The position numbers and the translations under genes were made by a program. A stretch of 64,000 bases of DNA from an uncultured Chloroflexia bacterium (lineage in GTDB: Bacteria > Chloroflexota > Dehalococcoidia > Dehalococcoidales > UBA2162), in assembly GCA_963735055.1 (NCBI GenBank), contig CAVTJN010000007.1, positions 14,761-78,760 on the forward strand, read 5' to 3'. Shown here one piece after another: positions 5,449 to 22,257 of the stretch. Position 1 is the stretch's first letter, and every line of letters starts with the position of its first letter. The notes beneath the pieces were generated by a model, which was given only the letters and a program-made list of their open reading frames with translations, was not told where the DNA came from and ran no database searches.

Positions 5449-5733
5449 ATGAAGAAATTTCATATGTTCGAAATTTATGCCAGTGAGGAAGGCGTTTATT
5501 TTGCCTCAACGGATCAAAAAGCTCAAGAAATGGCGACAAAAATGTTTCTTGAATATCAACACAATGATTCCCCCCTGGTTGTAAAATTTCCCCCTTGGTC
5601 GAAGAGTTCGAAGGTGATATTTTTTCTACAAAAACTAAAACTTGAGCTAGTTATGAATGGCTGGGAGCCGTTTGCCGTCACTCAGAAAGGAACCGAAATA
5701 AACTACTTTTTCCGCAGAGAAGAGACTGACTAG
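5449..5733 (+). CDS. small hypothetical protein (DUF4177-like C-terminal pattern)
   Basis: AGGAGG RBS 6 nt upstream of ATG 5449. MKKFHMFEIY...LVMNGWEPFAVTQKGTEINYFFRRE resembles the GWEL..yFKR signature. AT-rich codon usage. Confidence 0.4.
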   Translation: MKKFHMFEIYASEEGVYFASTDQKAQEMATKMFLEYQHNDSPLVVKFPPWSKSSKVIFFLQKLKLELVMNGWEPFAVTQKGTEINYFFRREETD

Positions 5734-5940
5734 CGCGTCATTTTTATTCTGGCTCCTGGCAAACAAATAAAAAATTTACGAAAGCAATAAAGAATTATGT
5801 GGGCTAATGACCCATGCATTTCTCTTATTCTGTCATCAATTTCGAATATTCAGACAGTCTCTTAGAGTAGACAAAGAAAAGAGAGTAGAAAATAACTACT
5901 CTCTTTTCTTTGGTATAAAATAATAGTAGTGGAGGGGAAA

Positions 5941-6321
5941 ATGAATCCAGCAGATTTTACTTTAAAAAACTTGGCTTTAGACACTTGGTATAAATTATTA
6001 CTTGCTTTAGGGATAGGCATATTTTTCGTTTCTTTACTGTTTGACCTAAAAGGAATCTCTACACAACAAGCACAAATACTTTCAGGTGGACTTTTTCTGT
6101 TTGGAATGGGTGAATGGATTAACCACAAGAAAGGTTTTTACATAGCACATATGGCGGTCTGGTCATTTCGAGTTACTGATACTTTTTGGAGACCTAATAT
6201 ACTTGGCTTATTATTAGACCTAATAGGGTTGGTTCTTTTGTACAGTATTTTTAATTCCTTGTTTGGTTATCCTTTATATCAACCCATTCTAAAACTAACG
6301 CTAAATAATCCAAATCCCTAG
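5941..6321 (+). CDS. small integral membrane protein, unknown function
   Basis: GGAGGGG RBS before ATG 5941. Three or four hydrophobic segments (LLLALGIGIFFVSLLF, GGLFLFGMGEWI, LLLDLIGLVLLYSIF). Confidence 0.4.
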   Translation: MNPADFTLKNLALDTWYKLLLALGIGIFFVSLLFDLKGISTQQAQILSGGLFLFGMGEWINHKKGFYIAHMAVWSFRVTDTFWRPNILGLLLDLIGLVLLYSIFNSLFGYPLYQPILKLTLNNPNP

Positions 6322-6902
6322 AATATAAAATCCTCCTAGAAATTAGGGGGATTACTTTTAAACAGAGCTCGGAGGAAGTCATATTAATTCTTGAGTAAAC
6401 AAATGAATACCATTGAACTGGTTATTAAATAATTTGATGCCTAATTCTAGACAGTTTACCTCATCCGATATTATGGTTTATAAAGAAATGTACTGTTTCT
6501 CCCCACCACACGCCCATGCTATCGGTGATTTAGGTAGTTTATTTTTATCGAGGTAGGGGGGGATTATAGATAAAATTATGGCTTGGCATTTTAATCGACA
6601 ATAGATAGTGGCTTTGTACGCCCCTAGGATGGTCCCGTCAATGACGGAGAAAGCGAGGTTGCCTTTTCTTAAATCGTATCTCCGGGCGCTCATATCGTTG
6701 CGCAAACATTCTCGCGCCTTATCCGGCGACGATTTCACCCCCATTGGAAAATGCCCCCGCCGGTGTACTGGCTTATTTACGGCAAACTCACGGTCCGCCT
6801 ATCTGCTTGAGACAAAGCTTCCTTCAGAACCCTACTCCGATTTCCGTTGATCCGGCGTAAAATAGATGAGATATGTTTGATCCTTCGATGGAGGATAATA
6901 GG

Positions 6903-8090
6903 ATGCGTATCGCAGAATGTACGGATTCCTTTTTGCCGGTGGTGGACGGAGTAGGGCGCGTTGTGTATCAATACGCTTGCTCGCTCTCACTTTCCGGTAA
7001 TGAATGTTATGTAATAACGTCGGTTCAGAATACGGGATATCGCGGAAAGCAACCGTTTGAGATTGTGGATTTTTCAAGCGTGAAGGTGCCTTCGGCTCCG
7101 CAGTACCAGACGGGTATCGCACCCCTCGACTTACATTATGTTGAGCGGATCTCCATGATCGAGCTGGATCTTATCCACGCGCACGCACCAGGTTTTGCCG
7201 GCGCCGAGGCAATACGGCTGGCCGGAAAGCTGAACATTCCACTTGTCGGTACTTTCCACTCAAAATATTATGAGGACTTTCTTCGCGTGACGCACAGCGA
7301 TGTGCTGGCATCTTTGGGTTCACGCTTCGTAGCAGAGTTCTATGGACGCTGCGATGAGGTTTGGACGGTCAGCCAGGATGCGGCGGAGACGCTTCTCTCT
7401 TATGGCTATAAAGGAGATGTCGAGATTGTTCAAAACGGTACGGAAATGCGTACTCCCACTCCTGAATTTGAAAAGGCCGCACGGGAAAGGTTCAATCTTG
7501 GAAGCGAACCGATCCTGCTCTACGTTGGACAGATCGATACTAAAAAGAACCTTCGCAGGATCGTCGAGTCTGCCGCGCTATAGAAGAAGCGAGGGCATTC
7601 TTTTCAACTAGTCTTCGCGGGGCAGGGACAGGATAAAGAGGACCTTGAAAAGATGGCGGTTGAACAAGGTCTCGATAAAGTCATATTCACCGGGCATATT
7701 TCAGATCGCGATCTATTGGACGGTCTCTATATGGCGGCGTCGCTGTTTGTGTTTCCGTCTCTTTACGATACCGCTGGTCTGGTAGTACGCGAAGCAGCCG
7801 TAATGGGCACGCCATCCGTCGTGGTGGCGAATACTGCTCCGGCAGAAGTCATTTCGAATGGTCTGAACGGGTTGGTCTGTAGTGACGATACGGACAGTCT
7901 TTGTGATGTTATGGAGCGTTATCTTTTCGGAATGAGTGAAAATGAGCGTGAAAATATTCGAAAGAATGCTCAAGAAAGTGTTCCGCTGCCGTGGGAGACT
8001 GTGATGACAGAAGTTGAGGAGCGCTACAAAGCTCTCATTCTGAAGGGTAAACCGAAAAGAAAATCATTGCTTTCTCATCTGATCCCATAA
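6903..8090 (+). pseudogene. GT4-family glycosyltransferase, one frameshift near 7580
   Basis: MRIAECTDSFLPVVDGVGRVV and HAHAPGFAG in ORF 6873..7583. C-terminal VIFTGHISDRDLLDGLYMAASLFVFPSLYDTAGLVVREAAVMGTPSVV (E-x7-E region) in ORF 7653..8090. Confidence 0.75.
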
Positions 8091-8272: not shown

Positions 8273-9793
8273 ATGATGCTCATCAATCTTAACTTCAATC
8301 AAGACGGTCAGGCCTACAGCCCCTATTGGCGGGTTTGCGTCGGCGGCGGACGAGTGGGTGAAGCGCTGCGCGCCGATTTTCAGAAGCATCTGGAAATGGT
8401 GCAGCGCGAAATGCCCTTCCAATACCTGCGCATGCACGGCCTGTTCCACGAGGATATGATGGTCTACCATGAAGAAAACGGCCGGCCCATCCTCAACTGG
8501 CAGTACGTTGACCTGGTGTACGACCACTGGCTTTCGATTGGCATCCGCCCGTTTGTGGAGCTGGGCTTTATGCCCTACGATCTGGCCAGCGGCGATCAGA
8601 CTGTCTTCTGGTGGCGCGGCAATATCACCCCACCCAAAGATTGGGCGCGCTGGGAATGGTTGATTGAGCAGTTCATCCTGCACATCAGAGAGCGCTACGG
8701 GCCGGCCGAAGTACGCCGCTGGTATTTCGAGGTTTGGAATGAGCCGAGTCTGTACTTTTTCTGGAAAGACGCTGACTTTAGCGCCTACATGGAGCTGTAC
8801 GAGCGTACTGCTCGCGTGATCAAGCGCATCGACTCACATCTGCGAGTGGGCGGGCCGGCCAGCCATGGCTTTGGCGATCAAGTGGGCGTGCCGCCATGGG
8901 GCAAGGAGTTCCTGACGGCCTGCGCTGAGCGTAACCTGCCGCTCGATTTCTTCTCTACCCACCCGTACCCCACCCTATACCCGGTTGACCTGGAAGGGCG
9001 CGGTTACATGACCTGGGACGGCCCGGATCGCCTGCTGGTGGATGCGCGCGGCTGTGATAAGCTCTTACGCGCATCAGCTTACCCCAATGTTGAGCGTCAC
9101 TACACCGAGTGGAGCTCCAGCCCCAGCCCACGAGATGCCGTGCACGACACCGCCTTCCTGGCATCCTTCATTGTCGATAACAACTGGCGCGCGCGCGGCT
9201 TGATGGATTCGCTTTCGTTCTGGGTGGTCAGCGATATTTTTGAGGAAAGCCGCCAGGGAGATACCCCCTTCCACGGCGGTTTTGGCCTGGTGAATATCCA
9301 GGGGTTGAAAAAAGCATCCTATCATGGCTATTGGTTCCTCTCGCGACTGGGCGATGAAGTGCTGGCTGAAGGCGATTCGTATGCGGTCACCCGGCGCGGC
9401 GACGGCACCCTGGTGGTCTTGATGTGGAACTACTGCCACTACCGCGATGACGCCAACGACAGCCGCCTGCTGGCCGCTGCTAATCCGCACGAAATTTATG
9501 ACCTGTTTGCCATTCAACCTCCGCGCGAATTTCACCTGAAAGTGGACGGCGTGGGGGAGACCGTTCGATTGCAAATCACCCGCTTCGACCGCCAGCATGG
9601 CAGCGTCTACGATGCCTGGGCGGCCATGGGTGCGCCGCAGCATATCCTCCCCGCCGACCTGGAAGTGCTGCGCCGGCGCATGGAATTGGATGTGGCAGTC
9701 GAACGCATCGCCACGCCGGATGGCAGCCTCGAATGGGCTACCACCGTTCAACCGTTTGGCGTGACTCTCCTGGAGATCCAGCGGGTCGGATGA
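8273..9793 (+). CDS. GH39 glycoside hydrolase (beta-xylosidase-like)
   Basis: Intact 506-aa ORF with FQYLRMHGLFHED, RRWYFEVWNEPSL (acid/base region) and YTEWSSS (nucleophile region). Confidence 0.85.
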   Translation: MMLINLNFNQDGQAYSPYWRVCVGGGRVGEALRADFQKHLEMVQREMPFQYLRMHGLFHEDMMVYHEENGRPILNWQYVDLVYDHWLSIGIRPFVELGFMPYDLASGDQTVFWWRGNITPPKDWARWEWLIEQFILHIRERYGPAEVRRWYFEVWNEPSLYFFWKDADFSAYMELYERTARVIKRIDSHLRVGGPASHGFGDQVGVPPWGKEFLTACAERNLPLDFFSTHPYPTLYPVDLEGRGYMTWDGPDRLLVDARGCDKLLRASAYPNVERHYTEWSSSPSPRDAVHDTAFLASFIVDNNWRARGLMDSLSFWVVSDIFEESRQGDTPFHGGFGLVNIQGLKKASYHGYWFLSRLGDEVLAEGDSYAVTRRGDGTLVVLMWNYCHYRDDANDSRLLAAANPHEIYDLFAIQPPREFHLKVDGVGETVRLQITRFDRQHGSVYDAWAAMGAPQHILPADLEVLRRRMELDVAVERIATPDGSLEWATTVQPFGVTLLEIQRVG

Positions 9794-9970
9794 GAGTAAC
9801 CTGGTGGTGCCGTATTAAGTATGTTCGGCATCGACGAGACCAATTAGGCGCTGTGTTTTGACCTGTTCTGCTAGTAATACTGCGAGTGGCGGAGTTGCCG
9901 TCGCCAACCTGATGGATTGCTTGCAAGCGCTGAGTAATGTGCTTTCTCCATTGTCTGAGACAAGTAAAAA

Positions 9971-10008
9971 GTAGAGGCGATTATTTACGAGTAAATAATC
10001 GCCTCTAC
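9971..10008. terminator. bidirectional terminator hairpin between convergent GH39 and GH29 genes
   Basis: gtagaggcgattattta-cgag-taaataatcgcctctac, a 17-bp perfect stem. Confidence 0.55.
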
Positions 10009-10022
10009 TATACTAGATCCAA

Positions 10023-11524
10023 TTATTTCCGCTCAATTCTCAAGGTATAGGCGTGCTCGCAGGGTTTCTGAGCAGGCATTTGAACATGCAGCCCGAGCTC
10101 GTCTTGATGCCAGGTTAGTTCACCCGGCGTCCCTAACAGGTGAATGGCCTGGATTTGTTTCTGCCGGCACAAACGATCCTGCTTTTAGGGAATGGATAAC
10201 AGCCTGCCCAGTTTCGGGCCAGGCCAGGAGGAAGGTAAACAAATCTTTACCTTTCTGGGTAAAGCGGATATCTTGAGCGGTATATACCACCTGCTCCGTA
10301 TCCCAAATCTTTTCGGTATTTTAAGTCGAAGGCCCTTCCCCATACACAGTCCATGGCCGGGTTCCGAAAATACCTTCTTGGTTGACATCCATCCAACGGG
10401 TGAATCCTTCCAGGAAGCGCTCCTCATCTTCGTCAATCGTGCCGTCGCCGCGCATGGGGATGTTCAACAGCATATTTCCGTTTTTGCTAACGATATCGAT
10501 CAATTCGGTAACCTTTTCTCTAACGCTTTTATATTGTATGTCGCGGCGATAATGCCAGGCTCCAATGCAGGTATCCGTCTGCCACGGGTAAGGTTCAATG
10601 GTTCCAAACCGCCTGTGCTCCATATCCTGAACAACCGGTTTTTGCAGATGGTCCGGCACATCTTTGACGTTCAAGGACCACATCTACTTTCCCATACCAG
10701 TCCAGGCTGGCGTTGTAATAATAAGCCGCGATCTCTGGCGCGATCTCCTGCATGCCGAGGTAGGTATCCAGGTCATGAACGGGCTGCAGAGCATCATCAA
10801 AATACAATAGATCAGGGTGGTATTGATCGATCAAATCCTTGACGCGTAAAACGACGTTCTCAACGAATTCTGGGTCTGGGTCGGATCCATAGGGATGGGG
10901 CCGCGTGTATAACTCCTGTGGATCCAGGCCTTCCCACCAAAGTCCTTTGCCATCCGCTTTGGTCATGTTTCCATCGTAGGGAACGCCCGCCAGAGGGCCT
11001 TCTTTATCCGCGCCAAATGTCAACGGAAAGAACTGCCGCCAGGTGCGGCTGGGAGTGCTGTGGATGGTGACGCCGAAGCGCAGTCCTTGAGCGCGGGCGG
11101 CTTTTGCCCATCCACCCACGATATCTTTCTTCGGCCCGACGTTGACCGAATTCCAGGCATGGTAGGAGGAATTCCACATGTCAAAGTTGCAGTGATGGTT
11201 TCCCAGGGCAGTAAAGTATTTTGCCCCGGCGCGTTTGTAGCGTGCAATTAACGCTTCAGGATCCCAACTCTCGGCTTTCCAAAGATTGCAGATATCCTTA
11301 TAGCCGAACTTTGAGGGATGCCCATAATGCTCCAGGTGATATTGGTAATGCGGATGGCCCTGACTATACATGTTCCGCGCGTACCAATCCCCCATCTCGG
11401 GTACGCACTGCGGGCTCCAGTGTGCCCAGATCCCTAGCTTGGCATCGCGAAACCATTCGGGAACCTGATAATTAAAAAGCGAATTCCAATTTGAGTCAAA
11501 ATGGGTTGTAAAGTTCTCGAACAT
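10023..11524 (-). pseudogene. GH29 alpha-L-fucosidase paralog 1, several frameshifts
   Basis: ORFs 10595..11524 (WFRDAKLGIWAHW, GNHHCNFDMWNS) and 10321..10683. My reading of two further frames gives DIRFTQKGKDLFTFLLAWPETGQAVI and LLGTPGELTWHQDELGLHVQMP..LRIERK, with the stop at 10023-10025. Confidence 0.85.
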
Positions 11525-11678
11525 CGTTATTCCCTCTTCTCATGAATTTTTTAAACAGTGGTTTACAAATCAATTCTATGTTGTTGATCGTAGTGCTGAG
11601 AACGCCCATTTGGATGGCCAGGTCCGGTGTGATGACAAGTGGTAGCAGTGGAATGGAGTTTATCGTCAACCCCTAAGT

Positions 11679-13140
11679 TTAGGAAAGGGATTCATCTGTT
11701 ATTTTATACAGTCCCACAGCCTTAATCGTGGGACTGTATCTTGCTTTCAGGATGCGAAGTCGCAACCGCTGCGCCGAGACCAGCGGAAAACGCAGCAGCC
11801 GTTGATAACCGACCGTGGTGGCGCGGGCGATTTCCTCCCAGCCGGAGTCCGTCTGCACATCAATGGCGCACTGTTCGATGCGCTGCCCCTCCTCAATCTG
11901 TTCCTGCAGCCGGATGACATCAAACGTTTTCACCTCACCCAGGTCGATCACCAGCTCAGCCTGCTCGACCCCCGCCTCAGACGCCCAATAGGTTTCATCC
12001 TTGCCGTCCACAATGTGCTCCGCGGCGATCAGCGGTTTGCCTGCCTGCGTGGAGCTTGCGCTCACCTGCGCTCCCAGCGCCAGGTTCGTCTGAAACGTGC
12101 GCCTTGAAGAAACCGCCCAGTTCTTCCAGCCGCGCGACATCGGTTTCATGTATCAGCCCGCGCTGGTCTGGGGGCAGGTTGAGCAGCAGGGTCGAATTGC
12201 CTCCAACCGCACTGAAATACAGGTCCACCAGGTTTTCCAGGCTGCGTACTTGTTCATCCTCGCCGTGGTGATAGAACCAGCCTGGCCGGATGGAAGTATT
12301 CGTTTCTGCCGGGTACCAGATTAACCCGTTTGCCTGCCGGATTCGCTCGCGGCTGCCCAGGTCGGGCGTCCACATCTCCAACCGTTCCGCAAACCGGCCC
12401 TCGTCTGTTTGTTGCGAATCCCCCGCGATGCGCTCCTGGTCGAACATCTCCGCCGGGACGACGCTCCACTCGCTCTCGCGCACTTTCCCAGCCTCATTAC
12501 CGCACCAGCGCACATCCGGGCCCATCACCGATATCACCGCATTGGGCTGCAGCTCCCGGATCCGCCGGTAGTAGGCCTCCCAGTCATACACCTGGCGGTT
12601 TCCGTTCGGTCCTTCGCCGCAGGCGCCGTCAAACCACAAGCAGAACAACTCACAGTACTGTGTCAGCAGCTCGGTGAGTTGGTTGAGAAAATAGGTGTTG
12701 TAACGAGGCGAGTCGCCATACGTCGGCTCGTGCCGGTCCCAGGGCGAAAGGTATAACCCCAGCTTGAGCCCAGCCTCCCGGCACGCCGTTGCCAGCTCGC
12801 CCACCACATCGCCCTGACCGTTCTTCCACGGGCTGTGCTTCACCGAGTGGTCGGTATACTGGCTGGGCCATAGGCAGAAGCCATCGTGATGCTTGGCGGT
12901 CAAAATCACCCCGCGCATTCCCGCCGCCTTAAATGCCGATACCCACTGGCGCGCATCCAGTTGGGTTGGATTGAAAATCGCCGGGTCTTCCGTTCCCAGC
13001 CCCCACTCACGGCCGGTGAAGGTGTTCATCCCAAAATGGATGAAACTATAAAATTCCATCCGCTGCCAGGCCAACTGCCGCGGTGAAGGCCTGACCAGTG
13101 CAGCCTGTTTAATCCAATCTGTTGATTCCCCTATAACCAT
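11679..13140 (-). pseudogene. GH29 alpha-L-fucosidase paralog 2 with C-terminal F5/8 type C (discoidin/CBM32-like) domain, one frameshift near 12100
   Basis: ORF 11995..13140 carries TAKHHDGFCLWPS and FCLWFDGACGEG. ORF 11679..12149 carries IVDGKDETYWASE...LRLRILKA. Confidence 0.85.
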
Positions 13141-13158
13141 CGATTTCCTCCTTCGCGC

Positions 13159-14205
13159 TTAAGTCTGACTCACGACCTTCTTCACCTCTTGTTCGCGGCT
13201 TTTCGCGCAAACCAGCAAGGCATCCTGTGAATCGATAATTATCAAATCCCCGATACCGATGGTGGCGATTAATTTCTGGCTAATCCCCATCGCGATGGTG
13301 TTATGTGTGTCAATCGCTATATGCGGCACAGTCCAGACGTTCCCTTTTGCGTCGGGCGTGTGCAACTGATCCAGGCTGGTCCAACTGCCAACATCTACCC
13401 AGCCCATGCTGATCGGGATCACCGCTATCCGGCTGGCCTTCTCCATGATTCCATAATCGATGGTTTCCTTCTTCACCTGCTGCCAGATTTGAGCGATATT
13501 CTGCTGGTAGTCAGCCGTATGAGTACATTGGGCGATTCTGGATAAAGCTTGGGACAGGTCCGGCATGTGCGTTTGGAACTCCTGCATAATGCGGCTTACC
13601 TGCCAGACGAACATGCCGCTGTTCCAGGAGTAACCACCCCGAGTTACCATTTGCAACGCGGTTTCTTGATCGGGCTTTTCGATAAACCGGCGCACCTGGT
13701 ATGCTGCCAGCCCGTTTATTTGCTCGAGTAATTGATCTTGTTCGATATATCCGTAAGCGGTGGAAGGTGAGGTCGGTTTAATACCCAGGGTAACCATGCA
13801 GCCTTTACCGGCGATCATCTCGGCGGCTTTGAGCGCTTCTAAAAAGGTGCTGGTATCCGCGATGAAATGGTCAGCCGTCAATATCGCCATGGTCGCATCC
13901 GGGTCGTGTTTTTGTAAATAGACCGCTGCCAAACCGATGGCAGGAGCTGTCCCGCGCCCTTCTGGTTCGAGTAAAAAATTCGCCGCCGGTATCTGTGGTG
14001 CTTGCTCGTGCAGCAGCGTCTTGTATTCGGCCCGCGTCACCACCAAAATTCGATCTTCCCTGAACATGGAGGTCAGCCGGTGAACGGAGTGCTGGAACAT
14101 GGTCTTATCACCAACCAGTTTGAGGGATTGCTTGGGGTGATTTTCCCGACTGAGCGGCCAAAGCCTCGTTCCTGTTCCACCTGCCATAATGACAGCCCAA
14201 TACAT
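13159..14205 (-). CDS. manC: mannose-1-phosphate guanylyltransferase-like sugar-1-phosphate nucleotidyltransferase
   Basis: Intact 348-aa ORF with MAGGTGTRLWPLSR at the N-terminus and ILTADHFI, TLGIKPTSPSTAYGYIE further in. Confidence 0.8.
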   Translation of the reverse strand: MYWAVIMAGGTGTRLWPLSRENHPKQSLKLVGDKTMFQHSVHRLTSMFREDRILVVTRAEYKTLLHEQAPQIPAANFLLEPEGRGTAPAIGLAAVYLQKHDPDATMAILTADHFIADTSTFLEALKAAEMIAGKGCMVTLGIKPTSPSTAYGYIEQDQLLEQINGLAAYQVRRFIEKPDQETALQMVTRGGYSWNSGMFVWQVSRIMQEFQTHMPDLSQALSRIAQCTHTADYQQNIAQIWQQVKKETIDYGIMEKASRIAVIPISMGWVDVGSWTSLDQLHTPDAKGNVWTVPHIAIDTHNTIAMGISQKLIATIGIGDLIIIDSQDALLVCAKSREQEVKKVVSQT

Positions 14206-14238
14206 GGTTTAATTCCTTTCTAGTCCAACCCGTCCAAA

Positions 14239-15060
14239 CTAAAACCCGCGCAGCTGCGTGCTCTCACGACGGGGTAAGCCCTCTTTCGGCAAGCGTTTCA
14301 ACACCACATACTCCAACCCATGCGTCTGGCAAAACGCTCGCTTTTCAGGTTTATCGCCGTCCTCATTGACCACGTAGCAATCTGGTTGAATTCGCTCAAT
14401 CTCCGGTTCCGCATCCATCCAACCCGTTCCTGTGGATACCCAGGCTTCGGTCACATGGCGGATCGATTGAACCATATATCGCCGCTCGGCTTCTCCGAAA
14501 AGCGGATGCCCCTCTCCTTTAAGAAGACGAACATTTGCATCACTACCGATTACTACATACAAATCACCCGATTGAGAGGCTTCTTCAAAGAAACGGACGT
14601 GCCCGGTATGCAGCCAGTCATAACAGCCGGTGACCACCGCCTTTCTCTGCACGTTCTCAGGCTGCCGCATTCTCAACGGCTGGTCCGAGAATTGGTCCAT
14701 CAGAGCATCCGGAATGATCTGGTACTCAAGCCCGTTTCCCCGGCAAAAATCTAATTTCGCCTGACTACCCATTTTGGAAGATACAACCCAGGCAGCGGGT
14801 GACTCGATCAAACTGAGAGGTAAACAATCTGGGCTGGCGAGTTCATCCACAGGAATCACACGGTCGACATACCGGATAGCCTCTAAAAAATACTGCCGCT
14901 CAGCCTGCGAGAACTTTGGCAGTTTTCCATCGATTGTCTGGACAACGACATCTGACCAGAGCAGCACCTGCACCGGCCCCAACCGCGCCGCCTCTTCGAG
15001 CAAGCGGACATGCCTTGAACGCAGATCATCATAACTACCTGAGACAAAAACCTCTGTCAT
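14239..15060 (-). CDS. protein with two tandem cytidylyltransferase-like (CTP_transf_like / RfaE domain II-type) domains
   Basis: Intact 273 aa. The C-terminal domain has TGCYDWLHTGHVRFFEEA. The N-terminal domain is degenerate (SGSYDDLRSRHVRLLEEA). Confidence 0.65.
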   Translation of the reverse strand: MTEVFVSGSYDDLRSRHVRLLEEAARLGPVQVLLWSDVVVQTIDGKLPKFSQAERQYFLEAIRYVDRVIPVDELASPDCLPLSLIESPAAWVVSSKMGSQAKLDFCRGNGLEYQIIPDALMDQFSDQPLRMRQPENVQRKAVVTGCYDWLHTGHVRFFEEASQSGDLYVVIGSDANVRLLKGEGHPLFGEAERRYMVQSIRHVTEAWVSTGTGWMDAEPEIERIQPDCYVVNEDGDKPEKRAFCQTHGLEYVVLKRLPKEGLPRRESTQLRGF

Positions 15061-15129
15061 TAAACCTCGACCCCTTTTTTATAGGAGAAGGCAGCAGCCG
15101 AATTGAAGCTGCTGCCTCCCTATTCGCCA

Positions 15130-15924
15130 TTAATACCGGACTTTAATCTGAAAACCACCCGGCACCGGCTTCTCTGAAACAACAAAAAGGTACCCGCCCC
15201 CGCAGCCCGAGTACATCGCTCCGGGATAGCGGGATTGATAACATCGCATCAGCGCTACCAGGTCGATGTGGATTGTGGGATGGCGCACCGTACCGGGCAG
15301 GATGGCCTCCCAACAGGCCATGCACTCATTCATGGAAGCACCCAACCGGTCGATATCTCGGGCGACAATTGCGTCAAAACAGTCTTTCCCGCTCTGGCCT
15401 AATTTCCTGATCCAATGCGGATCCAGGTTTTTCGTTTCCAACGGGTTGTAATCGGGCGGGCGCTGGATCACCGGGATCATATACACTACCCTCTCCAGCC
15501 AGGCTGCCACATGTGGATCGCGGTTGCTCTCGATATGGACCGGGTAAGTGCCGCCTTCAAAGCTTGCGTCAAAATCCAGGCGGTTGACGCCGGGAAAGAT
15601 GAGCCCGGCCATATCCTGCGAGCCACTGGGTTCGCTCTTCCCCTGGTTCTCCGCCTGGTATAGAGCTCTCATCAATTCTTTAGGGTCGCCTTCCGGCAGC
15701 CGATCGCCCCATAACTGGGCGGCCACGCGCCGGGTGGAAGTGCCCATTCCGCAGCGATCCATAAAGCGCACGGTGGGCTCCAAACCAACCACCACCATCG
15801 CGCCGGGCGGTGTCGGGTTGCGCTGCGAGACAAAAGGTTGGTCGATCCATCCGCCAGCCAGCGCCATTCGATACGGAATTTTTCCGATCATCTGGGTGGT
15901 TGTGAAATCAGGGGAGTTTTCCAT
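15130..15924 (-). CDS. GHMP-family sugar kinase, fucokinase/HddA-like
   Basis: Intact 264 aa with MALAGGWIDQPF (compare RIDLAGGWTD), CGMGTSTRR (motif II-like) and SGCGGGYLFVV (motif III-like). Confidence 0.65.
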   Translation of the reverse strand: MENSPDFTTTQMIGKIPYRMALAGGWIDQPFVSQRNPTPPGAMVVVGLEPTVRFMDRCGMGTSTRRVAAQLWGDRLPEGDPKELMRALYQAENQGKSEPSGSQDMAGLIFPGVNRLDFDASFEGGTYPVHIESNRDPHVAAWLERVVYMIPVIQRPPDYNPLETKNLDPHWIRKLGQSGKDCFDAIVARDIDRLGASMNECMACWEAILPGTVRHPTIHIDLVALMRCYQSRYPGAMYSGCGGGYLFVVSEKPVPGGFQIKVRY

Positions 15925-15933
15925 TTCCTGATC

Positions 15934-17388
15934 CTATGCGAAGCGGACCCGGTAGCATGGGGCGAAATCGACCGGCTTTTCCTCCGGCAGGTCAATCGCC
16001 AGCCCCCGCCGGGTCTGCTCAAACCGAACCAGGCCGTTATACCCCAGCACCGCCACCGACCCTACCTCCGGCGCACGCTCGAGCGCCAGGTTGCGGATGA
16101 CCGTTTTTCCGCCTTCCGGCCATTTCATCTGGAAGGCATACACGTCTCCATTTTTTCGCGTAAAGCGGAAATCTTCAATCGTCCAGGGAACAGCGTCTTC
16201 CTTAAAGTGCTCGATCTCGACTTGAGAAGGACCTTCACCAAAGACCTTCCAGGGACGGGTGCCATAAATGCCCTCACCATTGACGCGCATCCACGCCCCC
16301 ACCGCTGGAGCAGATAGTGACATTCATCGTCCAGCGTACCGTCCGGCCGCTGGGGGATATTCAACAGCAGGTTGCCGTTCTTGCTGACGATATCCACCAG
16401 CATTTCGGCCACTTGCTTGGGAGTTTTATAAACATCGCTGACGTTGTAGAACCAGTCGCCCACGCTGGTATCCGTCTGCCAGACGTAGCGGTAGAATTCC
16501 TGGGAGTTGGCTGCGCTCGATGTCTAACACACCGACAGTACAAATACTCTCCTGGCGTCTTTCTGGTTGTAGACTGCCTGGTTCACGCCGCCATGCAGCC
16601 TGGCGCTGGTGTTGTACAGGTGGGCGATGATATTCAGCCCATACTCACCAAACGGCACGCCGCCATCGGAATAGAGCAAGTCCGGTTGGAAGAGGTCGAT
16701 CAGCTCTTTGACATAGGCAAACCATTTCGCGTGCCACCATGGATTGCTGGTGTACCATTCCTGCTCGAGATTGGCCGTGTTTTGGTTGGGGAGGTAGAGA
16801 TCTTCATAGGCAGGGTCATTACCGTCATAGGGCACCCCGGCAAACGGCCCGCTCTTGTCGGCGCCTTTGGTCAGTTTGTACCAGCTGAAGGTGGCGCCCA
16901 TGTGCTCGGAGAAGCCGAAGGGCAGCCCGTACTTTCGGGCCGCCTGCTGCCACATCGCCATGATATCCTTGCCGGGACCCATCTTGACCGAGTTCCAGCG
17001 GTGATGGGTGGAGTTCCAGTTGTGAAAATTATCGTGGTGGGCGGCCTGTGCGACGAAATATTTCGCCCCGGCGTCCACGTACAAGTCCATCAGCCCTTCC
17101 GGGTCAAACTTTTCGGCCTTCCACAGCTATGCACCACATCCTTGTAGCCAAACCTGGAGGGGTGCCCGTACTGGCGCATGTGGTAGCGGTACTGGTCCGA
17201 TGCCCTCGACGTACATATGGCGCGCATACCAGTCGCCGTACATCGGCACGAGACTGCGGTCCCCAATGCGACCAGATGCCGAACTTGGCATCCTGGAACC
17301 AGTGCGGGCATTCGAACGTTCGCAGTGATTCCCAGGTGGGCTCAAACGGTCCTTTTTCAATCGTAAATTCCGCCTGCTTGTCGCTCAT
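15934..17388 (-). pseudogene. GH29 alpha-L-fucosidase paralog 3, at least three frameshifts
   Basis: Fragments 17104..17388 ([16 protein letters not shown]), 16524..17090 (AAHHDNFHNWNS), 16125..16463 and 15934..16323 (FRFTRKNGDVYAF) lie in different frames. Confidence 0.8.
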
Positions 17389-17464
17389 ATTTTCTTCTTC
17401 CGCTTATATAGCCTGATTGGTTCGTTTGGGCCGCGCTGATATTTAAACGCATCCACCCTCTGCA

Positions 17465-18497
17465 TTAATCCTGCACGACACGCTTGCCCGCTTTGCGGTC
17501 CATGTACTGCTGCTCGATCCAGGCGTAAGTGTGCTTCAGCCCTTCCTTGAGCGGCAGGTTTGGCTCCCACCCCAAGCACCGCCTTGATCATGGTGTTGTC
17601 GCTGTTGCGCCCGGCAACGCCTCGTGGGGCATCCAAATCATAGTTCCGCTCCATCTTGATCCCGGCGATCTCTTCGATGTAGTCGACCAGTTGGTTGATG
17701 GATACCAGCTCGCTGGTGCCCAGGTTGATCGGCGTGGCGATCAGTTTGTCGCAGTGCATGATCTGATCGATACCGTAGACACAGTCATCGATATACATAA
17801 AACTGCGCGTCTGGGTGCCATCGCCCCAGATATCGATTTCGTATTTTCCCGCGTCCTTGGCTTCGATCACCTTGCGGCAGAGAGCCGCCGGGGCTTTTTC
17901 GCGCCCGCCGAACCAGGTGCCATGCGGGCCATAAACGTTGTGGAAGCGAGCGATGTGGGTTTCCAGTCCACGCTCTGCCCAGTATTCCTGGCAGAACATT
18001 TCGCTCATCAGCTTTTCCCAGCCGTAGCCGCGCTCCGCCATAGCCGGGTAGGCATCAGTCTCTTTGAGCGCACGCACGTTCGGGTCCTGCTGCAGAGTGG
18101 TGTTATACGCGCAGGCCGACGACGAGAAGAAGTAGCGGCTGACTCCCGCCTGGTAGGCTGCCTCGATCAGGTGGGTGTTGATCAGGATCGAGCGCAGGCA
18201 TTCCACCCGGTAGCGCTCGATGAAGCCCATCCCGCCCATGTCGGCAGCCAGGTTATAGACTTCGACCGCGCCTTCCACCGCCTTGATTGCATTCTCTTTT
18301 TCACTCAGGTCCATGGAGATGCATTCAACCCCTGGCACGCGCTGGTACCATTCGGGGAGGGGTTTACGGTCAATGGCGCGAATCCGGCGAAAGCCCTTAT
18401 CTTGAAAATAGCGCGTTAGCGCCCCGGCAATGAAGCCGCCTGCACCCGTGATGACGATTAAGTCATCCTGGTTCATCACATCCACTGCTGTAATCAT
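17465..18497 (-). pseudogene. gme: GDP-mannose 3,5-epimerase, single frameshift in a homopolymer near the 3' end
   Basis: GAGGFIAG, NLAADMGGMGF, SSACAY, YGWEKL, RFHNVYGPHGTW.GGREKAPAA.CRK, GDGTQTRSF and GVAGRNSDN closely track plant and bacterial GME. After the C-run 17570-17573 the true frame reads GWEPNLPLKEGLKHTYAWIEQQYMDRKAGKRVVQD, with the stop at 17465-17467. Confidence 0.85.
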
Positions 18498-18518
18498 GAT
18501 TTCCTCACTCTCTGTCAT

Positions 18519-18547
18519 ATAATATGGTATCGATACCATATCTTGAA
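18519..18547 (-). promoter_or_regulatory. promoter of the GME-GH29 operon with an embedded LacI-type operator
   Basis: On the minus strand: TTCAAG, 17 nt, TATTAT. The spacer is filled by the perfect 20-bp palindrome atatggtatcgataccatat (18522-18541). A GAGGA RBS precedes ATG 18497. Confidence 0.55.
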
Positions 18548-18567: not shown

Positions 18568-19575
18568 CTATTTGATCGATGGGCCGCTTGAACGGCGAAT
18601 AATCAACTGAGTTGGTAAGATAATCTCCTGAAACGAATGCATCTCCTTGCCCTTCAATCGTTCCAATAGCAATTTCATCGCCCGCATGCCCATTTCATAA
18701 GCTGGCTGAGAAGCGACCGTGAAAAATGGGAAAGTAACCATGGAGGGTGGGAGATCATCAAAACCAACCAGAGCAATATCGTCTGGTACAGCCAGATCCA
18801 TCTCCTGCAGCGCTTTCATCGCCCCGATCGTAATAAAATTATTGGCAGCGATGAGCGCAGTCGGGCGCAGGGGTAGCTTGATTGCTTGTTTGGTCATGAG
18901 ATAGCCGCTGTCCTGAGTGAAATCTCCACGAAAGATAAACCCATCATCAATGGCTAACCCGGCTTCTTCTAAAGCCATTCGATACCCAACAACACGATCG
19001 TCTGCCGTAGAAACGCCAACCGCACCGCTCATCACGGCAATCCGGGAATGGCCAAGAGATACCAGATACCGGGTGAGTTGGTAAGCGCCATCCACCGAGT
19101 CGCAACGGACGGTATCGACATCCACATCTGGAACACGGCGGTCTAGCACCACCACCGGAGTGCCGTGCTTTTGAACTTGCAGGAGCGCCTTCGCATGACT
19201 GTGCGACGGAACGAATAGAAGTCCATCAACCTGTTTTTGGAGTAAAACATTCAGGTATTTCTCTTCTTTAGCCGCCGACTCATCCGTGTTACAAAAAATG
19301 ACCGTATAGCCCGCCTCATTCGCCGCATCTTCTACCCCTCGGGCCAGGGTTGTAAAAAAAGGATTGGTGATGTCAGTAACCATCAAACCGACCGTGTCCG
19401 TACGCCGGGAGCGCAGGCTGCGCGCCAGGGTATTGGGAACATAACCCAGCTCCTTTATCGCTTTCTCAACGCGCTCACGAGTCTCGAGGCTTACATAACC
19501 AGAAGAATTGATCACCCGTGAAACAGTGATCGATCCTACCCCTGCGCGTTTGGCAACTTCATGCATCGTTGGCAT
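18568..19575 (-). CDS. LacI-family transcriptional regulator
   Basis: Intact 335 aa with N-terminal HTH MPTMHEVAKRAGVGSITVSRVINS and a periplasmic-binding-protein-like sugar-binding core. Confidence 0.9.
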   Translation of the reverse strand: MPTMHEVAKRAGVGSITVSRVINSSGYVSLETRERVEKAIKELGYVPNTLARSLRSRRTDTVGLMVTDITNPFFTTLARGVEDAANEAGYTVIFCNTDESAAKEEKYLNVLLQKQVDGLLFVPSHSHAKALLQVQKHGTPVVVLDRRVPDVDVDTVRCDSVDGAYQLTRYLVSLGHSRIAVMSGAVGVSTADDRVVGYRMALEEAGLAIDDGFIFRGDFTQDSGYLMTKQAIKLPLRPTALIAANNFITIGAMKALQEMDLAVPDDIALVGFDDLPPSMVTFPFFTVASQPAYEMGMRAMKLLLERLKGKEMHSFQEIILPTQLIIRRSSGPSIK

Positions 19576-19587
19576 TCATTTCCTTAT

Positions 19588-19618
19588 ATGGTATCCATAC
19601 CATGTGGTATCGATACCA
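19588..19618. promoter_or_regulatory. two adjacent LacI-type operators (same motif as at 18522-18541)
   Basis: atggtatccataccat (19588-19603) and tggtatcgatacca (19605-19618), 13-43 nt upstream of the lacI-family start codon. Confidence 0.55.
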
Positions 19619-19685
19619 TAATATATGGTTTTTTCGCTCTCGTCAATAGGTAAAAACGGGTAAATTTCAATCCCAAACCTGCCTA

Positions 19686-19741
19686 TTGACTCGACCCTAA
19701 AAAAGATGTATTGTAATGTAAATGTTACCGGAAACTTTTAC
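19686..19741 (+). promoter_or_regulatory. candidate promoter of the ABC-transporter operon plus a second-type palindromic operator
   Basis: TTGACT (19686-19691), 17 nt, TATTGT (19709-19714). Immediately downstream is gtaaatgttaccggaaactttac (19718-19741), a CG-centred 24-bp palindrome with 10 of 12 positions paired. Confidence 0.4.
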
Positions 19742-19908
19742 GGAGTTCTATTCATCGAAATAGCATCGAACGAATGGTTAAAACAGCCGCAAGGTTGCCT
19801 GGTTTGACTTCATCAGGAGGTGTATATCGCGATATACATGCTGAGTCGTCCTTTCTTGACTTCTGTTTCCCAAGGATTGAACGTCTGGAATATAAGGATC
19901 AAACCAAA

Positions 19909-21252
19909 ATGAAGAAGAAGATTTCCACCATTTTCGCGTTTTTGATGATTGTCGTTCTCGTTGCCGGCTGCGCGGCGCCCTCCACCACCCCTCAGGCTGT
20001 TGAACCGACCCAGGCTCCTGCGGCAACCACGGCCCCAGCAAAAACTGACGTGACCCTCACCTATCTGGTTAGCCAGGGCTGGGCCCCCGATGCCGAAATG
20101 GCGCTCGCACAACAGTTTACAGAGAAAACCGGCATTAAAATTGACTACCAGGTTATCCCATCCGATCAATACTTCAACGTCTTGAAGACAAAACTCAATT
20201 CCGGCGAAGGGCCGGACCTCTTCGGCGGGCAAAGTGGCAAGACTGACCTGGTGGTGAACTACGACGTTGAAAAGAACGCTGTGGATTTGTCCGCTGAACC
20301 ATGGGTCAAGACGGAAGACCCACAAGTTCTCGATCAATCCACGGTCAACGGCAAAGTGTATGGCCAGACGGTCTGGAATACTCTCGGCACGACCTGGGTG
20401 ATCAACTACAATAAGGATATCTTTGCCAAGTTAAACCTGAGCGTACCAACCACCTTCGCAGAACTCAAATCTGCCTGCGAGAAAATTAAAGCGGACGGTA
20501 TCATCCCCATCTACGAGCCAATGGCCGACGGATGGCACCAGGTCTTATGGTTCGCGGAATTAGGCGTCCAGATCGAGAATGTTGCTCCCGGAACAGCCGA
20601 AAAGTTGAACACCAACAAGACCACCTTTGCCGAAGACCCAACCGCACTGCTGATCCTAACTCAATACAAGGATCTGTATGACTCCGGTTGCTACGGGGAT
20701 AACGCACTATCTGATGCGGTAGCCGACCAGACCAAAACGATCTCCTCGGGCGCAGCAGCCATGACCGTCGCCAATCTGACCTTCGCTCAGCAGGTGAAGC
20801 ACGATTATCCAGAATTCAATCAAGATAGCCTGGGTGTCTTCATCATTCCACTGGCCGATAATCAGGTCTTGAACGCCAATCCCGCTGGACCCACCAAGTT
20901 CATCTGGAAAGGGTCAAAGCATATTCCGGAGGCGGTTCAGTTTTTAGACTTCCTCGCGCAACCCGACAGTCTGCAATACCGGGTCGATAACGATCCCAAC
21001 AGCCCGACCCTGCCATTCCCTGGAATCAAGAGCAAACTGCTTCCTTCTCAGCAAGCCTTCCTGGATGCCAGCATAAAGCGGGGTGTGGTTTACCAGACCG
21101 CAGTGAAATATGTAAATCCACAATGGATGGATATGGGGAAGGATATCGTGGCCATGTTCACCGGCACTGGAACTCCGCAACAATTCCTGGCCAACATCGA
21201 TAAGCGCCGCGCCGAAGAGGCCAAAGCTGCCAAGGATCCTAACTGGCAGTAG
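19909..21252 (+). CDS. ABC sugar transporter, extracellular solute-binding lipoprotein
   Basis: MKKKISTIFAFLMIVVLVAGC lipobox, followed by a T/P/A-rich linker and a family-1 SBP-like body. The ORF call 19774 has an implausible N-terminal extension. Confidence 0.85.
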   Translation: MKKKISTIFAFLMIVVLVAGCAAPSTTPQAVEPTQAPAATTAPAKTDVTLTYLVSQGWAPDAEMALAQQFTEKTGIKIDYQVIPSDQYFNVLKTKLNSGEGPDLFGGQSGKTDLVVNYDVEKNAVDLSAEPWVKTEDPQVLDQSTVNGKVYGQTVWNTLGTTWVINYNKDIFAKLNLSVPTTFAELKSACEKIKADGIIPIYEPMADGWHQVLWFAELGVQIENVAPGTAEKLNTNKTTFAEDPTALLILTQYKDLYDSGCYGDNALSDAVADQTKTISSGAAAMTVANLTFAQQVKHDYPEFNQDSLGVFIIPLADNQVLNANPAGPTKFIWKGSKHIPEAVQFLDFLAQPDSLQYRVDNDPNSPTLPFPGIKSKLLPSQQAFLDASIKRGVVYQTAVKYVNPQWMDMGKDIVAMFTGTGTPQQFLANIDKRRAEEAKAAKDPNWQ

Positions 21253-21364
21253 CAAGACTGGTTTTCGTTGTGACCGAATAACCTACTGAGATATCTTAGT
21301 ACGGCTCCCAACCCAGGATGTCCGAGCATCCTGGGTTGGGATCTCAGAAAAAGGGATTTATCCC

Positions 21365-22243
21365 GTGAATCATCGAAATCGTTATCCCTTCTATTTTGTT
21401 CTTGGCGCCCTCAGTTTATACCTGGTGTTTTCGATCATCCCAGGTATATCCGGGATCCTCTACTCATTTACGGACTGGAGCGGATATACCACCCAAATTA
21501 AATTTATCGGATTGGAAAACTTCAAGACAATTTTCTCGGCAAGTGAAAATTATCTGCTTTTCATAAAAAACACCTTCATATTTACGATCATCACCATCGT
21601 TCTAAAGACAGTCTTTGGTCTGGCTCTGGCGTTGATCTTAACTGAAGGGGTCAAACGCTTCGCATATTTTTATCGGATGATGATTTACCTGCCTGTTGTT
21701 TTACCGTCCCTGGCAGTTGCGCTTATTTTCCGGTCGATTTTAAACCCGGCCACAGGCCTGCTCAACACAACCTTGCGCGCGATCGGATTGGGGATGCTGG
21801 CCCAGAAATGGCTGGTTGACCCGCATATTGCGCTATATTCGGTGGTCGGGGTCGACACCTGGCAAGGGGTGGGATATATCATGGTCATCCTGATCGCCGG
21901 CCTTCAATCCATCCCTCGAGAATATTATGAGGCCGCCGATGTGGATGGAGCCGGTTTTTGGTCAAAGCTTTTCTGGATTACCCTGCCATTGATGATGCCT
22001 GCCATCATCATCGTCACCATTTTGAATTTGCTGTACGCATTAAGGGTGTTTGATATTGTATACGCCCTGACGAATGGCGGTCCGGGTTATGCCACGGATG
22101 TAATCTTCACTGCCGTATTTAAGGCTTTTAGCCAGGGGCAATGGGGCCTCGGCACAGCCTTTTCCAGCCTTTTGTTCGTGTTCATGTCTGTGCTGGGTTA
22201 TTTTGTGATTCGATTACTGGATCGCGGACAAGCCATAGAATGA
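21365..22243 (+). CDS. ABC sugar transporter permease (MalF/UgpA-like)
   Basis: Intact 292 aa, six TM segments, EAA-type loop YYEAADVDGAGFWSKLFWITLP. Confidence 0.9.
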   Translation: MNHRNRYPFYFVLGALSLYLVFSIIPGISGILYSFTDWSGYTTQIKFIGLENFKTIFSASENYLLFIKNTFIFTIITIVLKTVFGLALALILTEGVKRFAYFYRMMIYLPVVLPSLAVALIFRSILNPATGLLNTTLRAIGLGMLAQKWLVDPHIALYSVVGVDTWQGVGYIMVILIAGLQSIPREYYEAADVDGAGFWSKLFWITLPLMMPAIIIVTILNLLYALRVFDIVYALTNGGPGYATDVIFTAVFKAFSQGQWGLGTAFSSLLFVFMSVLGYFVIRLLDRGQAIE

Positions 22244-22257
22244 GGAGATCTTGACCT

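Follow-up and report, generated by a model that had tools for sequence, protein, structure and literature searches.

How might a bacterium use three family GH29 glycosidases, a sugar kinase, two nucleotidyltransferase-type proteins and a GDP-mannose 3,5-epimerase (GME) that are encoded side by side? The question is raised by a locus on contig CAVTJN010000007.1 (assembly GCA_963735055.1) of an uncultured Chloroflexia bacterium, of which we analyzed a stretch of 64,000 nucleotides (nt), positions 14,761 to 78,760 of the forward strand. We refer to this stretch as the window and use its numbering unless a related locus is named. A sequence-only reading had proposed that seven genes between 18547 and 10023 form an operon that carries L-galactose or L-fucose through GDP-sugars in the manner of the Leloir pathway.

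On balance, we lean toward the view that the locus is a LacI-repressed catabolic operon for imported alpha-L-galactosyl and alpha-L-fucosyl oligosaccharides, in which a core triad of GME, kinase and a tandem cytidylyltransferase-fold (CT) protein assimilates L-galactose via GDP-L-galactose and GDP-mannose. In the proposed scheme, cytoplasmic GH29 enzymes would release alpha-L-galactose (GH29a and GH29c) and alpha-L-fucose (GH29b), and a compact GHMP-fold kinase would phosphorylate C1 to give beta-L-galactose-1-phosphate. The CT protein would use GTP to convert this to GDP-beta-L-galactose, and GME would turn it into GDP-alpha-D-mannose, the thermodynamically favored direction. ManC would then use pyrophosphate to yield mannose-1-phosphate and regenerate GTP, and housekeeping phosphomannomutase (PMM) and mannose-6-phosphate isomerase (PMI) would complete the path to fructose-6-phosphate. 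The triad itself is a three-gene module that is widespread in several phyla and apparently uncharacterized.

The epimerase and ManC

GME (17465-18497, minus strand) has 343 amino acids (aa) after repair of one frameshift near 17573; its start is most likely at 18497, not at 18539 as first read. The protein has the Pfam Epimerase domain and matches the plant GDP-mannose 3,5-epimerases in the PDB at 2e-70 to 6e-69 over residues 28-324, with 45% identity to plant GME over 288 aligned residues. The next-best PDB family (MoeE5, GDP-fucose synthase) reaches 5e-20. Described features of GME are a Rossmann GxxGxxG motif, the catalytic Ser and YxxxK elements, and a Cys and Lys acid/base pair for C5/C3 epimerization (PMC6678494). 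Alignment to the plant enzymes shows all of these kept, as ITGAGGFIA, SSSACAY with the Cys (SSACxY), YGWEKL (YGxEKL; YxxxK) and GGREKAPAA with the Lys. The family assignment holds, and interconversion of GDP-D-mannose and GDP-L-galactose is the predicted activity. Because the equilibrium of GME, 80:15:5, favors GDP-mannose (PMC6678494), the direction from L-galactose to mannose would be downhill.

ManC (13159-14205, minus strand, 348 aa) is a mannose-1-phosphate guanylyltransferase without a PMI domain. It matches PF00483 (NTP_transferase) at 7.7e-50, the ManC beta-helix family PF22640 at 2.1e-17, and Thermotoga maritima ManC (PDB 2x5s) at 3e-56. It misses the cut-off of the bifunctional guanylyltransferase/PMI model TIGR01479 (338.7 versus 372.95 bits) for lack of the PMI half, the match being confined to profile positions 3-344 of 467, and by its domain content the enzyme is of the monofunctional type. 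A related metagenome-assembled genome (MAG), MFD02979.bin.2.57 (L004 / L006, 11724-11966), has ManC cut to an 80-aa beta-helix remnant, with GME, GH29, kinase and CT protein retained; the cluster can therefore dispense with ManC.

A compact kinase of the GHMP fold

The kinase (15130-15924, minus strand, 264 aa), a proposed L-galactose 1-kinase, has no Pfam or NCBIfam match at E <= 0.01, including GHMP_kinases_N and GHMP_kinases_C. Its sole phmmer match in the PDB is a fucokinase at E = 1.4, and its alignment to the motifs of FKP is weak. An AlphaFold2 model built from 31 homologues (pLDDT 81.5, pTM 0.84) has as its top Foldseek matches the heptokinase WcbL (4usk), the fucokinase part of FKP (9iip) and HddA (3k85), with E about 2e-7, TM 0.62-0.64 and probability 1.00; mevalonate-family kinases come next. 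Among the 31 homologues the motifs GGWxD, GMGTST, SGSQD and GCGGGY are invariant or nearly so, and G59, S63, T64, S100, G101, Q103, D104 and G240-Y245 are invariant. GHMP motif II (GxGxSS-type), motif III (GGGG) and the catalytic Asp of (G/S)xQD can all be located in the protein. The earlier label of a fucokinase-like GHMP kinase thus has support from the conserved motifs and the fold only, and no sequence profile recognizes the protein. The model supports a place in the anomeric sugar-kinase branch of the GHMP fold (fucokinase, HddA and WcbL), which it matches best.

Databases hold more than 7,000 relatives of about 264 aa, all unnamed or 'hypothetical', and most appear to lie in one 50%-identity cluster, judged by a single full-length representative at 67% identity. 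Distant paralogues (32-47% identity) occur as single-chain fusions of the forms CT-kinase, CT-CT-kinase, RhaM mutarotase-CT-kinase and PNP_UDP-CT-kinase, and these suggest a wider, undescribed family of candidate sugar-activation enzymes. Partners in the fused paralogues P0180, P0212, P0191 and P0144 are L-rhamnose mutarotase plus CT, PNP_UDP phosphorylase plus CT, a GT2 glycosyltransferase, and tandem CT domains. P0212 reaches GHMP_kinases_C at 1.3e-6, and P0191 and P0180 do so marginally (0.0065 and 0.0092).

The RhaM fusion fits an anomer-specific sugar kinase. GH29 enzymes are retaining and release the alpha anomer, whereas fucokinase-type kinases use the beta anomer, so that a mutarotase partner makes mechanistic sense. 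The single-chain architecture of Fkp, an NTP_transferase-fold pyrophosphorylase joined to a C-terminal fucokinase, is not what we find here: the kinase of the window, like its family, is a stand-alone protein of 264 aa, and the fusion partner of its paralogues is CTP_transf_like.

A tandem cytidylyltransferase-fold protein

The CT protein (14239-15060, minus strand, 273 aa) matches PF01467 (CTP_transf_like) at 2.8e-16 in two stretches. Its C-terminal domain is canonical, with H151, G153 and H154 of the HxGH motif invariant and R265, S267 and LRG(F) conserved. The N-terminal domain is degenerate and has lost HxGH, and one catalytic site is therefore likely. The AlphaFold2 model (pLDDT 89.3) matches human ECT (4xsv/3elb) over the whole chain in Foldseek with E = 3e-15 and TM 0.73, which identifies the protein, at the level of the model, as a tandem pseudo-dimer of the kind seen in ECT/Pcyt2. 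Single-domain matches are HldC, TagD and RfaE domain II (2e-22), with 28-30% identity to the HldC structure 5xf2. The family is similar in size to that of the kinase (>7,000 public-metagenome hits).

The sequence-only reading had found no obvious step for this protein. That gap can now be filled provisionally: because fusion to CT domains recurs among distant paralogues of the kinase, we assign the CT protein the nucleotidyltransferase step consecutive to the kinase, for which it is the best candidate. Nucleotidyl transfer to the sugar-1-phosphate is its most likely function, a link that rests on adjacency to the kinase (61/74 loci; see below) and on the paralogue fusions. We propose that it acts as an L-galactose-1-phosphate guanylyltransferase, with GTP inferred only from the GME partner.

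A conserved triad and its neighbors

A scan of one genome per species gave at least 591 encoding loci. Our comparisons use the best 80, those most similar to the query kinase, and are biased toward close relatives; adjacency was counted by tblastn with the window proteins in loci with enough flanking sequence. Greedy open reading frame (ORF) calling was discarded for this purpose, as in high-GC loci it favored ORFs on the antisense strand and lumped GME, kinase and CT protein together in a single cluster. The best 80 are spread over Chloroflexota, Acidobacteriota, Planctomycetota, Verrucomicrobiota, Latescibacterota and Victivallales; the isolate Anaerolinea thermolimosa IMO-1 is also represented, with its kinase orthologue at L037 10001-10789. 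Nearest of all are contigs at 78-82% identity, labelled as uncultured Chloroflexia MAGs with isolate names that begin with MFD, which we take to stand for the Microflora Danica survey.

The gene immediately before the kinase is GME in 58/68 loci, the one immediately after it encodes the CT protein in 61/74, and both neighbors are present in 45/63. ManC follows in 23/67, a GH29 gene lies within 4 kb in 14/81, and a relative of the window lacI (>50% identity) lies within 8 kb of the kinase in 27/81. The unit that is conserved is thus the triad GME-kinase-tandem CT, with ManC and GH29 as frequent but optional partners, and not the seven-gene operon. Conservation between phyla is unusually high: kinases 65-82% identical and GMEs mostly 73-84% identical to the window proteins occur across Chloroflexota, Acidobacteriota, Planctomycetota and Verrucomicrobiota (loci L005-L084), which suggests that the module either has spread horizontally or is under very strong constraint.

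Is the triad catabolic? Within 3 kb, 73 loci hold 21 LacI, 17 ManC and 9 GH29 genes. Families that recur among the 246 other ORFs are ABC and major facilitator superfamily (MFS) transporter components, L-fucose isomerase, FGGY kinase and AraC. RbsD/FucU mutarotases are present in 10 loci, CUT2 monosaccharide ABC transporters in 8-9 and FucI/FucK in 4. One triad has an oligogalacturonate-lyase-like gene (Pectate_lyase22) on one side and, on the other, a CUT2 ABC transporter with an FGGY kinase (L088, 4357-5580 and 9759-15127). Glycosyltransferase families account for 2/246 of these ORFs. The sequence-only reading had named consistent proximity to glycosyltransferase or exopolysaccharide genes as the sign of a purely biosynthetic role; this is not the pattern, and the neighborhood is catabolic or transport-related.

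These neighbors bear directly on a doubtful but serious alternative, namely that the triad serves salvage and provides the cell with GDP-L-galactose, or GDP-L-fucose, for building its own glycans. GME would then make GDP-L-galactose de novo from GDP-mannose, and the kinase and CT protein would recycle free L-galactose or L-fucose, much as Fkp does with fucose in Bacteroides. The published roles of bacterial GME, in lipopolysaccharide (LPS) and antibiotics, are indeed biosynthetic (PMC6678494, PMC8787198); in 2019, only 18 bacterial UniProt sequences were annotated as GME (PMC6678494). The fucokinase part of FKP is among the nearest folds of the kinase, and one kinase paralogue is fused to a GT2 domain. 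Triads that stand alone, with no glycoside hydrolase, transporter or ManC genes, occur in Acidobacteriota, Latescibacterota and some Planctomycetota, and these isolated triads are equally compatible with salvage.

Clustered triads, however, keep company with LacI repressors that have conserved operators and with sugar ABC transporters, GH29, FucU, FucI/K and ManC, and glycosyltransferases are as rare as noted above. The equilibrium of GME disfavors GDP-L-galactose. The window does contain a GT4 gene, some 2 kb past the terminator of the operon, as salvage might lead one to expect; it is encoded on the opposite strand, however, and a GH39 gene and a strong terminator stand in between.

A type I PMI gene lies convergent to and right after ManC in L086 (11131-11973). 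We considered PMI adjacency as support for an exit through mannose and rejected it, since the gene is close by only in that locus, with a weak and distant second case in L023, and is no conserved feature. A search for a non-orthologous replacement of the CT gene downstream of the kinase, in loci that have no adjacent CT gene, gave an unrelated esterase, a GyrI-like protein or no hit. In L058 alone, an NTP_transferase-type gene 35% identical to ManC directly follows the kinase.

Some Anaerolineae also have a second, paralogous module beside the main one (L048, 6412-8512; L067, 13844-14974; L021, 5578-6711, minus strand). It consists of a single-chain CT-kinase fusion of about 385-393 aa, with a kinase part 33-37% identical, followed in L048 by a GME paralogue at 42% identity. 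It may be a sister pathway for another L-sugar.

Which sugar?

The GH29 genes bear on the choice of substrate. GH29a (15934-17388, minus strand) and GH29c (10023-11524, minus strand) are GH29-A glycosidases with Alpha_L_fucos and Fucosidase_C domains, and they have four and two frame disruptions, respectively. The best PDB match of the intact GH29a orthologue in L002 and of the GH29c orthologue in L004 is BpGH29 (2.8e-82 and 4.5e-89); fucosidases match the same orthologues at 1e-49 to 1e-59. BpGH29 is the exo-alpha-L-galactosidase of the porphyran polysaccharide utilization locus of Bacteroides plebeius (PDB 7ljj/7lk7; PMC12316285), in which Asp327 fixes O6 of L-galactose; the T. maritima fucosidase has Thr there (PMC9774334).

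All 14 GH29-A genes compared in the loci have Asp327, His68 and Trp335 and are 38-50% identical to BpGH29. All five compared active-site residues are kept in nine of the 14, which are 46-50% identical and include the A. thermolimosa gene. The motifs WQTDTSVG (GH29a) and WQTDTCIG (GH29c) are present in the window, and the Asp327 position is Pro or Asn in the two GH29-B genes. The third enzyme, GH29b (11679-13140, minus strand), is such a GH29-B protein, with Alpha_L_fucos and a C-terminal F5/8 type C domain and one frameshift. Its match to AfcB (3mo4/3ues) at 1.1e-135 makes it alpha-1,3/4-fucosidase-like.

The N termini of GH29a, GH29b and GH29c, read from the translations, have no signal peptide, which fits import of oligosaccharides via the divergent ABC system and release of L-galactose and L-fucose in the cytoplasm. 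GH29a and GH29c, and the GH29 proteins near the module in other Anaerolineae, have BpGH29 as their best structural-database relative, with 38-50% identity and with Asp327, His68 and Trp335 retained. They differ from the BpGH29 system in that GH29a and GH29c are without signal peptide and apparently cytoplasmic, the source is probably terrestrial, and there are no sulfatase or GH16 partners.

BpGH29-like GH29-A enzymes together with GME, whose only known substrates are GDP-mannose, GDP-L-galactose and their epimers, point to L-galactose. The L-galactose part of the sequence-only reading thereby gains independent support, and L-fucose is the less likely substrate of the module.

The weaker case for another sugar or nucleotide deserves to be set out in full. 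The module might convert L-fucose via NDP-L-fucose to NDP-6-deoxy-D-mannose, the GH29 link then being fucose, or it might handle heptose, L-gulose or another hexose as an ADP- or CDP-sugar. GH29b is AfcB-like and FucU and FucI/K neighbors point to fucose, and we consider the idea unlikely all the same. Homologues of FucI, FucK, FucU and the CUT2 transporter were sought in the window and none was seen, apart from an unrelated ABC ATPase fragment, which leaves released fucose without a visible route. The heptose enzymes WcbL, HddA and HldC are among the nearest folds of the kinase and the CT domain, and the characterized CT-fold enzymes matched use CTP or ATP.

Against these points, the epimerase matches true GME 50 orders of magnitude better than any other short-chain dehydrogenase/reductase and keeps the catalytic motifs, and the GH29-A genes of the module have the O6-binding Asp of the L-galactosidase. 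Loci with adjacent FucI/K already have the classical fucose pathway, and there the module is better explained by the 6-hydroxy analogue. Finally, we know of no catabolic route from GDP-D-rhamnose or D-rhamnose-1-phosphate.

Several observations weigh against the proposed L-galactose pathway and temper our confidence in it. Every substrate is inferred, as are flux direction and the nucleotide of the CT protein. None of the structure-comparison matches is a cytidylyltransferase-fold enzyme that makes a GDP-sugar, and the nearest sugar-1-phosphate enzyme to the CT protein, HldC, is an adenylyltransferase according to the NCBIfam description of the RfaE domain II family. GH29a and GH29c of the window keep three of the five BpGH29 residues, with E80 replaced by D and V141 by Q or L; Asp327, compared here among BpGH29 and the GH29 genes of the loci, is a putative mark of L-galactosidase specificity.

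PMM is not seen near the triad and PMI is close by once only. Many triads outside Chloroflexota stand amid unrelated housekeeping-type genes with no glycoside hydrolase, transporter or ManC nearby. L-galactose is a minor sugar in nature, and a module so widespread and conserved (65-85% identity across phyla) might serve a commoner one. Lastly, four genes are frameshifted in the assembly, and the operon may be partly decayed in this genome.

Operon layout and regulation

The seven genes are all present on the minus strand in the order first read (GME, GH29a, kinase, CT protein, ManC, GH29b, GH29c), and Pfam confirms every domain that had been named except the kinase. The gaps among them, said to be very short, measure 9-154 nt. 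The boundaries given at the outset hold precisely: the stop codon of GH29c ends at 10023, and 18547 opens a weak -35-like hexamer that immediately precedes an operator. The unit does not end there, however. An intact LacI-family gene (lacI, 18568-19575, minus strand, 335 aa; Pfam LacI and Peripla_BP_1/3/4) lies directly upstream in the same orientation and is an eighth gene, so that eight co-oriented genes run from 19575 to 10023. An intrinsic terminator (9970-10009, minus strand) with an 18-bp stem, a 4-nt loop and a T-run follows GH29c. Divergent from lacI is an operon (19774-25229, plus strand) for a CUT1-type ABC solute-binding protein, two permeases and a GH31 enzyme; this ABC/GH31 gene content beside lacI is kept in L001, L002 and L004.

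The sequence-only reading placed one promoter with a LacI-type operator before GME. The operator is real and conserved: a perfect 16-bp palindrome, ATGGTATCGATACCAT (18524-18539), separates the stop codon of lacI from the start of GME. It occupies the spacer between two hexamers (TTCAAG, 17 nt, TATTAT) that form a weak promoter-like pair, 8/12 by eye, not called by the promoter scan. The only strong sigma-70-like promoter (TTGACG, 17 nt, TATTAT; 10/12; 19618-19646, minus strand) is upstream of lacI, in the intergenic region from which the ABC-transporter operon diverges. Immediately downstream of its -10 hexamer lie two more, adjacent LacI-type palindromes, GTGGTATCGATACCAT and ATGGTATCCATACCAT (19588-19619), with one mismatch each. 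Chance would give 0.12 operator matches where there are three, a number not attained in any of 100 shuffles.

The core TGGTAnCGnTACCA occurs 25-58 nt upstream of GME in L001, L002, L004, L006, L070, L081 and L082 and overlaps the start of the GME match in L062. It is also found upstream of the lacI orthologue, and of GME or transporter genes, in many Anaerolineae loci, and the paired arrangement before lacI recurs in L004, L031 and L037. The repressor combines the helix-turn-helix LacI domain with a periplasmic-binding-protein fold, and its palindromic operators with central CG lie near promoters, as in LacI/GalR systems; its NCBIfam matches, to RbsR/CytR/PurR, are all below cut-offs. From these features, the unit is better described as a putatively autoregulated eight-gene operon with an internal operator, divergent from the ABC-transporter/GH31 operon.

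Frame disruptions in GME and the GH29 genes

Not all of the seven genes are open as written. Alignment to intact orthologues of related contigs shows eight frame disruptions in four of them: one in GME near 17573, in a GGGG run; four in GH29a at about 17250, 16545, 16495 and 16305; one in GH29b within about 11995-12149; and two in GH29c at about 10673 and 10200. That leaves the kinase, the CT protein and ManC as the only ORFs of the seven that are intact. The eight disruptions cluster significantly: they are confined to the 5.45 kb that GME and the GH29 genes make up, and there are none in the 6.7 kb of LacI, kinase, CT protein, ManC, GH39 and solute-binding protein (8273-9793, 13159-15924 and 18568-21252). 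Homopolymer density was rejected as the cause of the clustering, since G/C homopolymer density is similar in broken and intact genes.

Such clustering would fit real decay, with the operon a relic in this genome and GME and the GH29 genes pseudogenes, and the ManC remnant of the relative L004 could be read in the same way. We regard this as quite improbable. Several disruptions coincide with G runs, the pattern associated with long-read homopolymer errors. Sister long-read contigs of the same assembly series have the same kind of split genes, and in one sample the orthologous locus was recovered twice, once broken and once intact (L001 versus L002). A Logan assembly of a public sequencing run contains an identical kinase with an upstream ORF that is open for at least 153 codons, versus 129 possible in the window. 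Frameshifts aside, the broken genes are still 71-92% identical to intact orthologues at the protein level. From the longer Logan ORF, the split genes of the sister contigs and the intact L002 copy, we conclude that the frameshifts are probably assembly errors, most plausibly of long-read origin. For the uneven spread of the disruptions, an assembly or polishing artefact, strain heterogeneity and real decay are all conceivable.

Comparison with known pathways

The proposed route resembles the Leloir pathway (GalK, GalT, GalE) in its logic: an anomeric GHMP kinase, nucleotide-sugar activation, epimerization to a mainstream nucleotide sugar, and entry of a hexose-1-phosphate into glycolysis, under control of a LacI/GalR-type repressor. 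It differs in using an L-hexose, GDP instead of UDP, and a double (3,5) instead of a 4-epimerization. The module has no HIT-family GalT-like transferase, and its kinase, at about 264 aa, is missed by the GHMP Pfam models. Exchange would instead depend on ManC and the CT-fold enzyme, both acting as pyrophosphorylases, a solution also seen in the pyrophosphorylase variant of galactose metabolism.

Like Fkp, or FKGP (PDB 9iip, 9iit; PMC11982464), the module would couple a GHMP-fold anomeric kinase for an L-galacto-configured sugar to guanylyl transfer. The likeness extends to motifs (GGWxD, GxGxS(S/T), (G/S)xQD and GGGGY), and the fucokinase part is in the top two fold matches of the kinase. Unlike Fkp, the activities are on separate proteins, pairing with GME is obligatory and the setting is catabolic operons; the sequence similarity of the kinases is not significant (E = 1.4). 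The pyrophosphorylase of Fkp has the NTP_transferase fold, whereas the nucleotidyltransferase of the module has the cytidylyltransferase fold.

With the Smirnoff-Wheeler pathway of plant ascorbate synthesis, the route shares GDP-mannose, GDP-L-galactose, L-galactose-1-phosphate and L-galactose as intermediates and an orthologous GME (45% identity). The flux is proposed to run in the opposite direction, without L-galactose dehydrogenase, and the kinase and pyrophosphorylase would replace VTC2 (the HIT-family GDP-L-galactose phosphorylase) and L-galactose-1-phosphate phosphatase. Nucleotide-heptose activation (HddA or WcbL with HddC; HldE / HldC) provides the closest folds for the kinase (4usk, 3k85) and the CT protein (5xf2). 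That system belongs to LPS and capsule biosynthesis, whereas the module partners with GME, has GH29 and sugar transporters as neighbors, and has a CT protein that is a tandem pseudo-dimer. GmhA and GmhB are absent from the recurrent neighbor families of the module loci.

Described bacterial L-galactose catabolism is oxidative, in Bacteroides vulgatus (BVU_0219/0222) and in Luteolibacter LG18 (Lgu; PMC12632266). These routes share with the locus the presumed substrate and polysaccharide-degrading hosts. They proceed by L-galactose dehydrogenase, L-galactonate, D-tagaturonate and 2-keto-3-deoxygluconate (KDG), with no C1 phosphorylation and no nucleotide sugar, and have no homologous enzymes in common with it. 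The searchable literature, an incomplete library in which absence is not proof, yielded no kinase-based or GDP-linked L-galactose route, only plant ascorbate synthesis, GME enzymology and the oxidative pathways. The earlier statement that no such route was known agrees with this; L-galactose catabolism described up to late 2025 is oxidative (PMC12632266).

Implications

We give even odds to the broader proposition that bacteria of at least six phyla carry an unrecognized Leloir-like, GDP-based pathway from L-galactose to GDP-mannose and central metabolism. If true, it would comprise a Pfam-less miniature GHMP L-galactose-1-kinase, the first cytidylyltransferase-fold sugar-1-phosphate guanylyltransferase and a GME working 'backwards', and would be a second, non-oxidative bacterial route for L-galactose. 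Two large unnamed families, each with more than 7,000 public-metagenome hits, would gain a function, and the related CT-kinase fusions would mark out a broader family of modules for L-sugar activation. Most bacterial GMEs of this clade would then be catabolic or assimilatory and not biosynthetic enzymes of LPS or antibiotics. Alpha-L-galactosides occur in rhamnogalacturonan II (RG-II) of plant pectin, in xyloglucan and in algal galactans, and would be a regular carbon source for Anaerolineae, Acidobacteriota, Planctomycetota and Verrucomicrobiota of soil and sediment. The enzymes would also be useful for the production of GDP-L-galactose and L-sugars, a named industrial goal in the GME literature (PMC8787198).

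Other features of the window

Downstream of the operon, the GT4 gene (6873-8090, plus strand) is split into two ORFs, with Glyco_transf_4 in the N-terminal half and Glycos_transf_1 in the C-terminal half. An intact GH39 gene (8273-9793) lies downstream of it and converges on the operon terminator. Beyond the GT4 gene, an AlaX-like (tRNA_SAD) ORF occupies 4148-4867. The GC content falls from 0.63-0.65 at 1-4000 to 0.46-0.49 at 4001-8000 and otherwise ranges from 0.50 to 0.63 over the whole window. On the far side of the divergent operon, a second LacI-family gene (25720-26631) has no helix-turn-helix part as called, possibly through another frameshift. It is followed by a 997-aa STAND-type AAA/TPR/LuxR regulator (28641-31634) and by an FAD/BBE-type oxidase gene (31728-33286) split into two overlapping ORFs.

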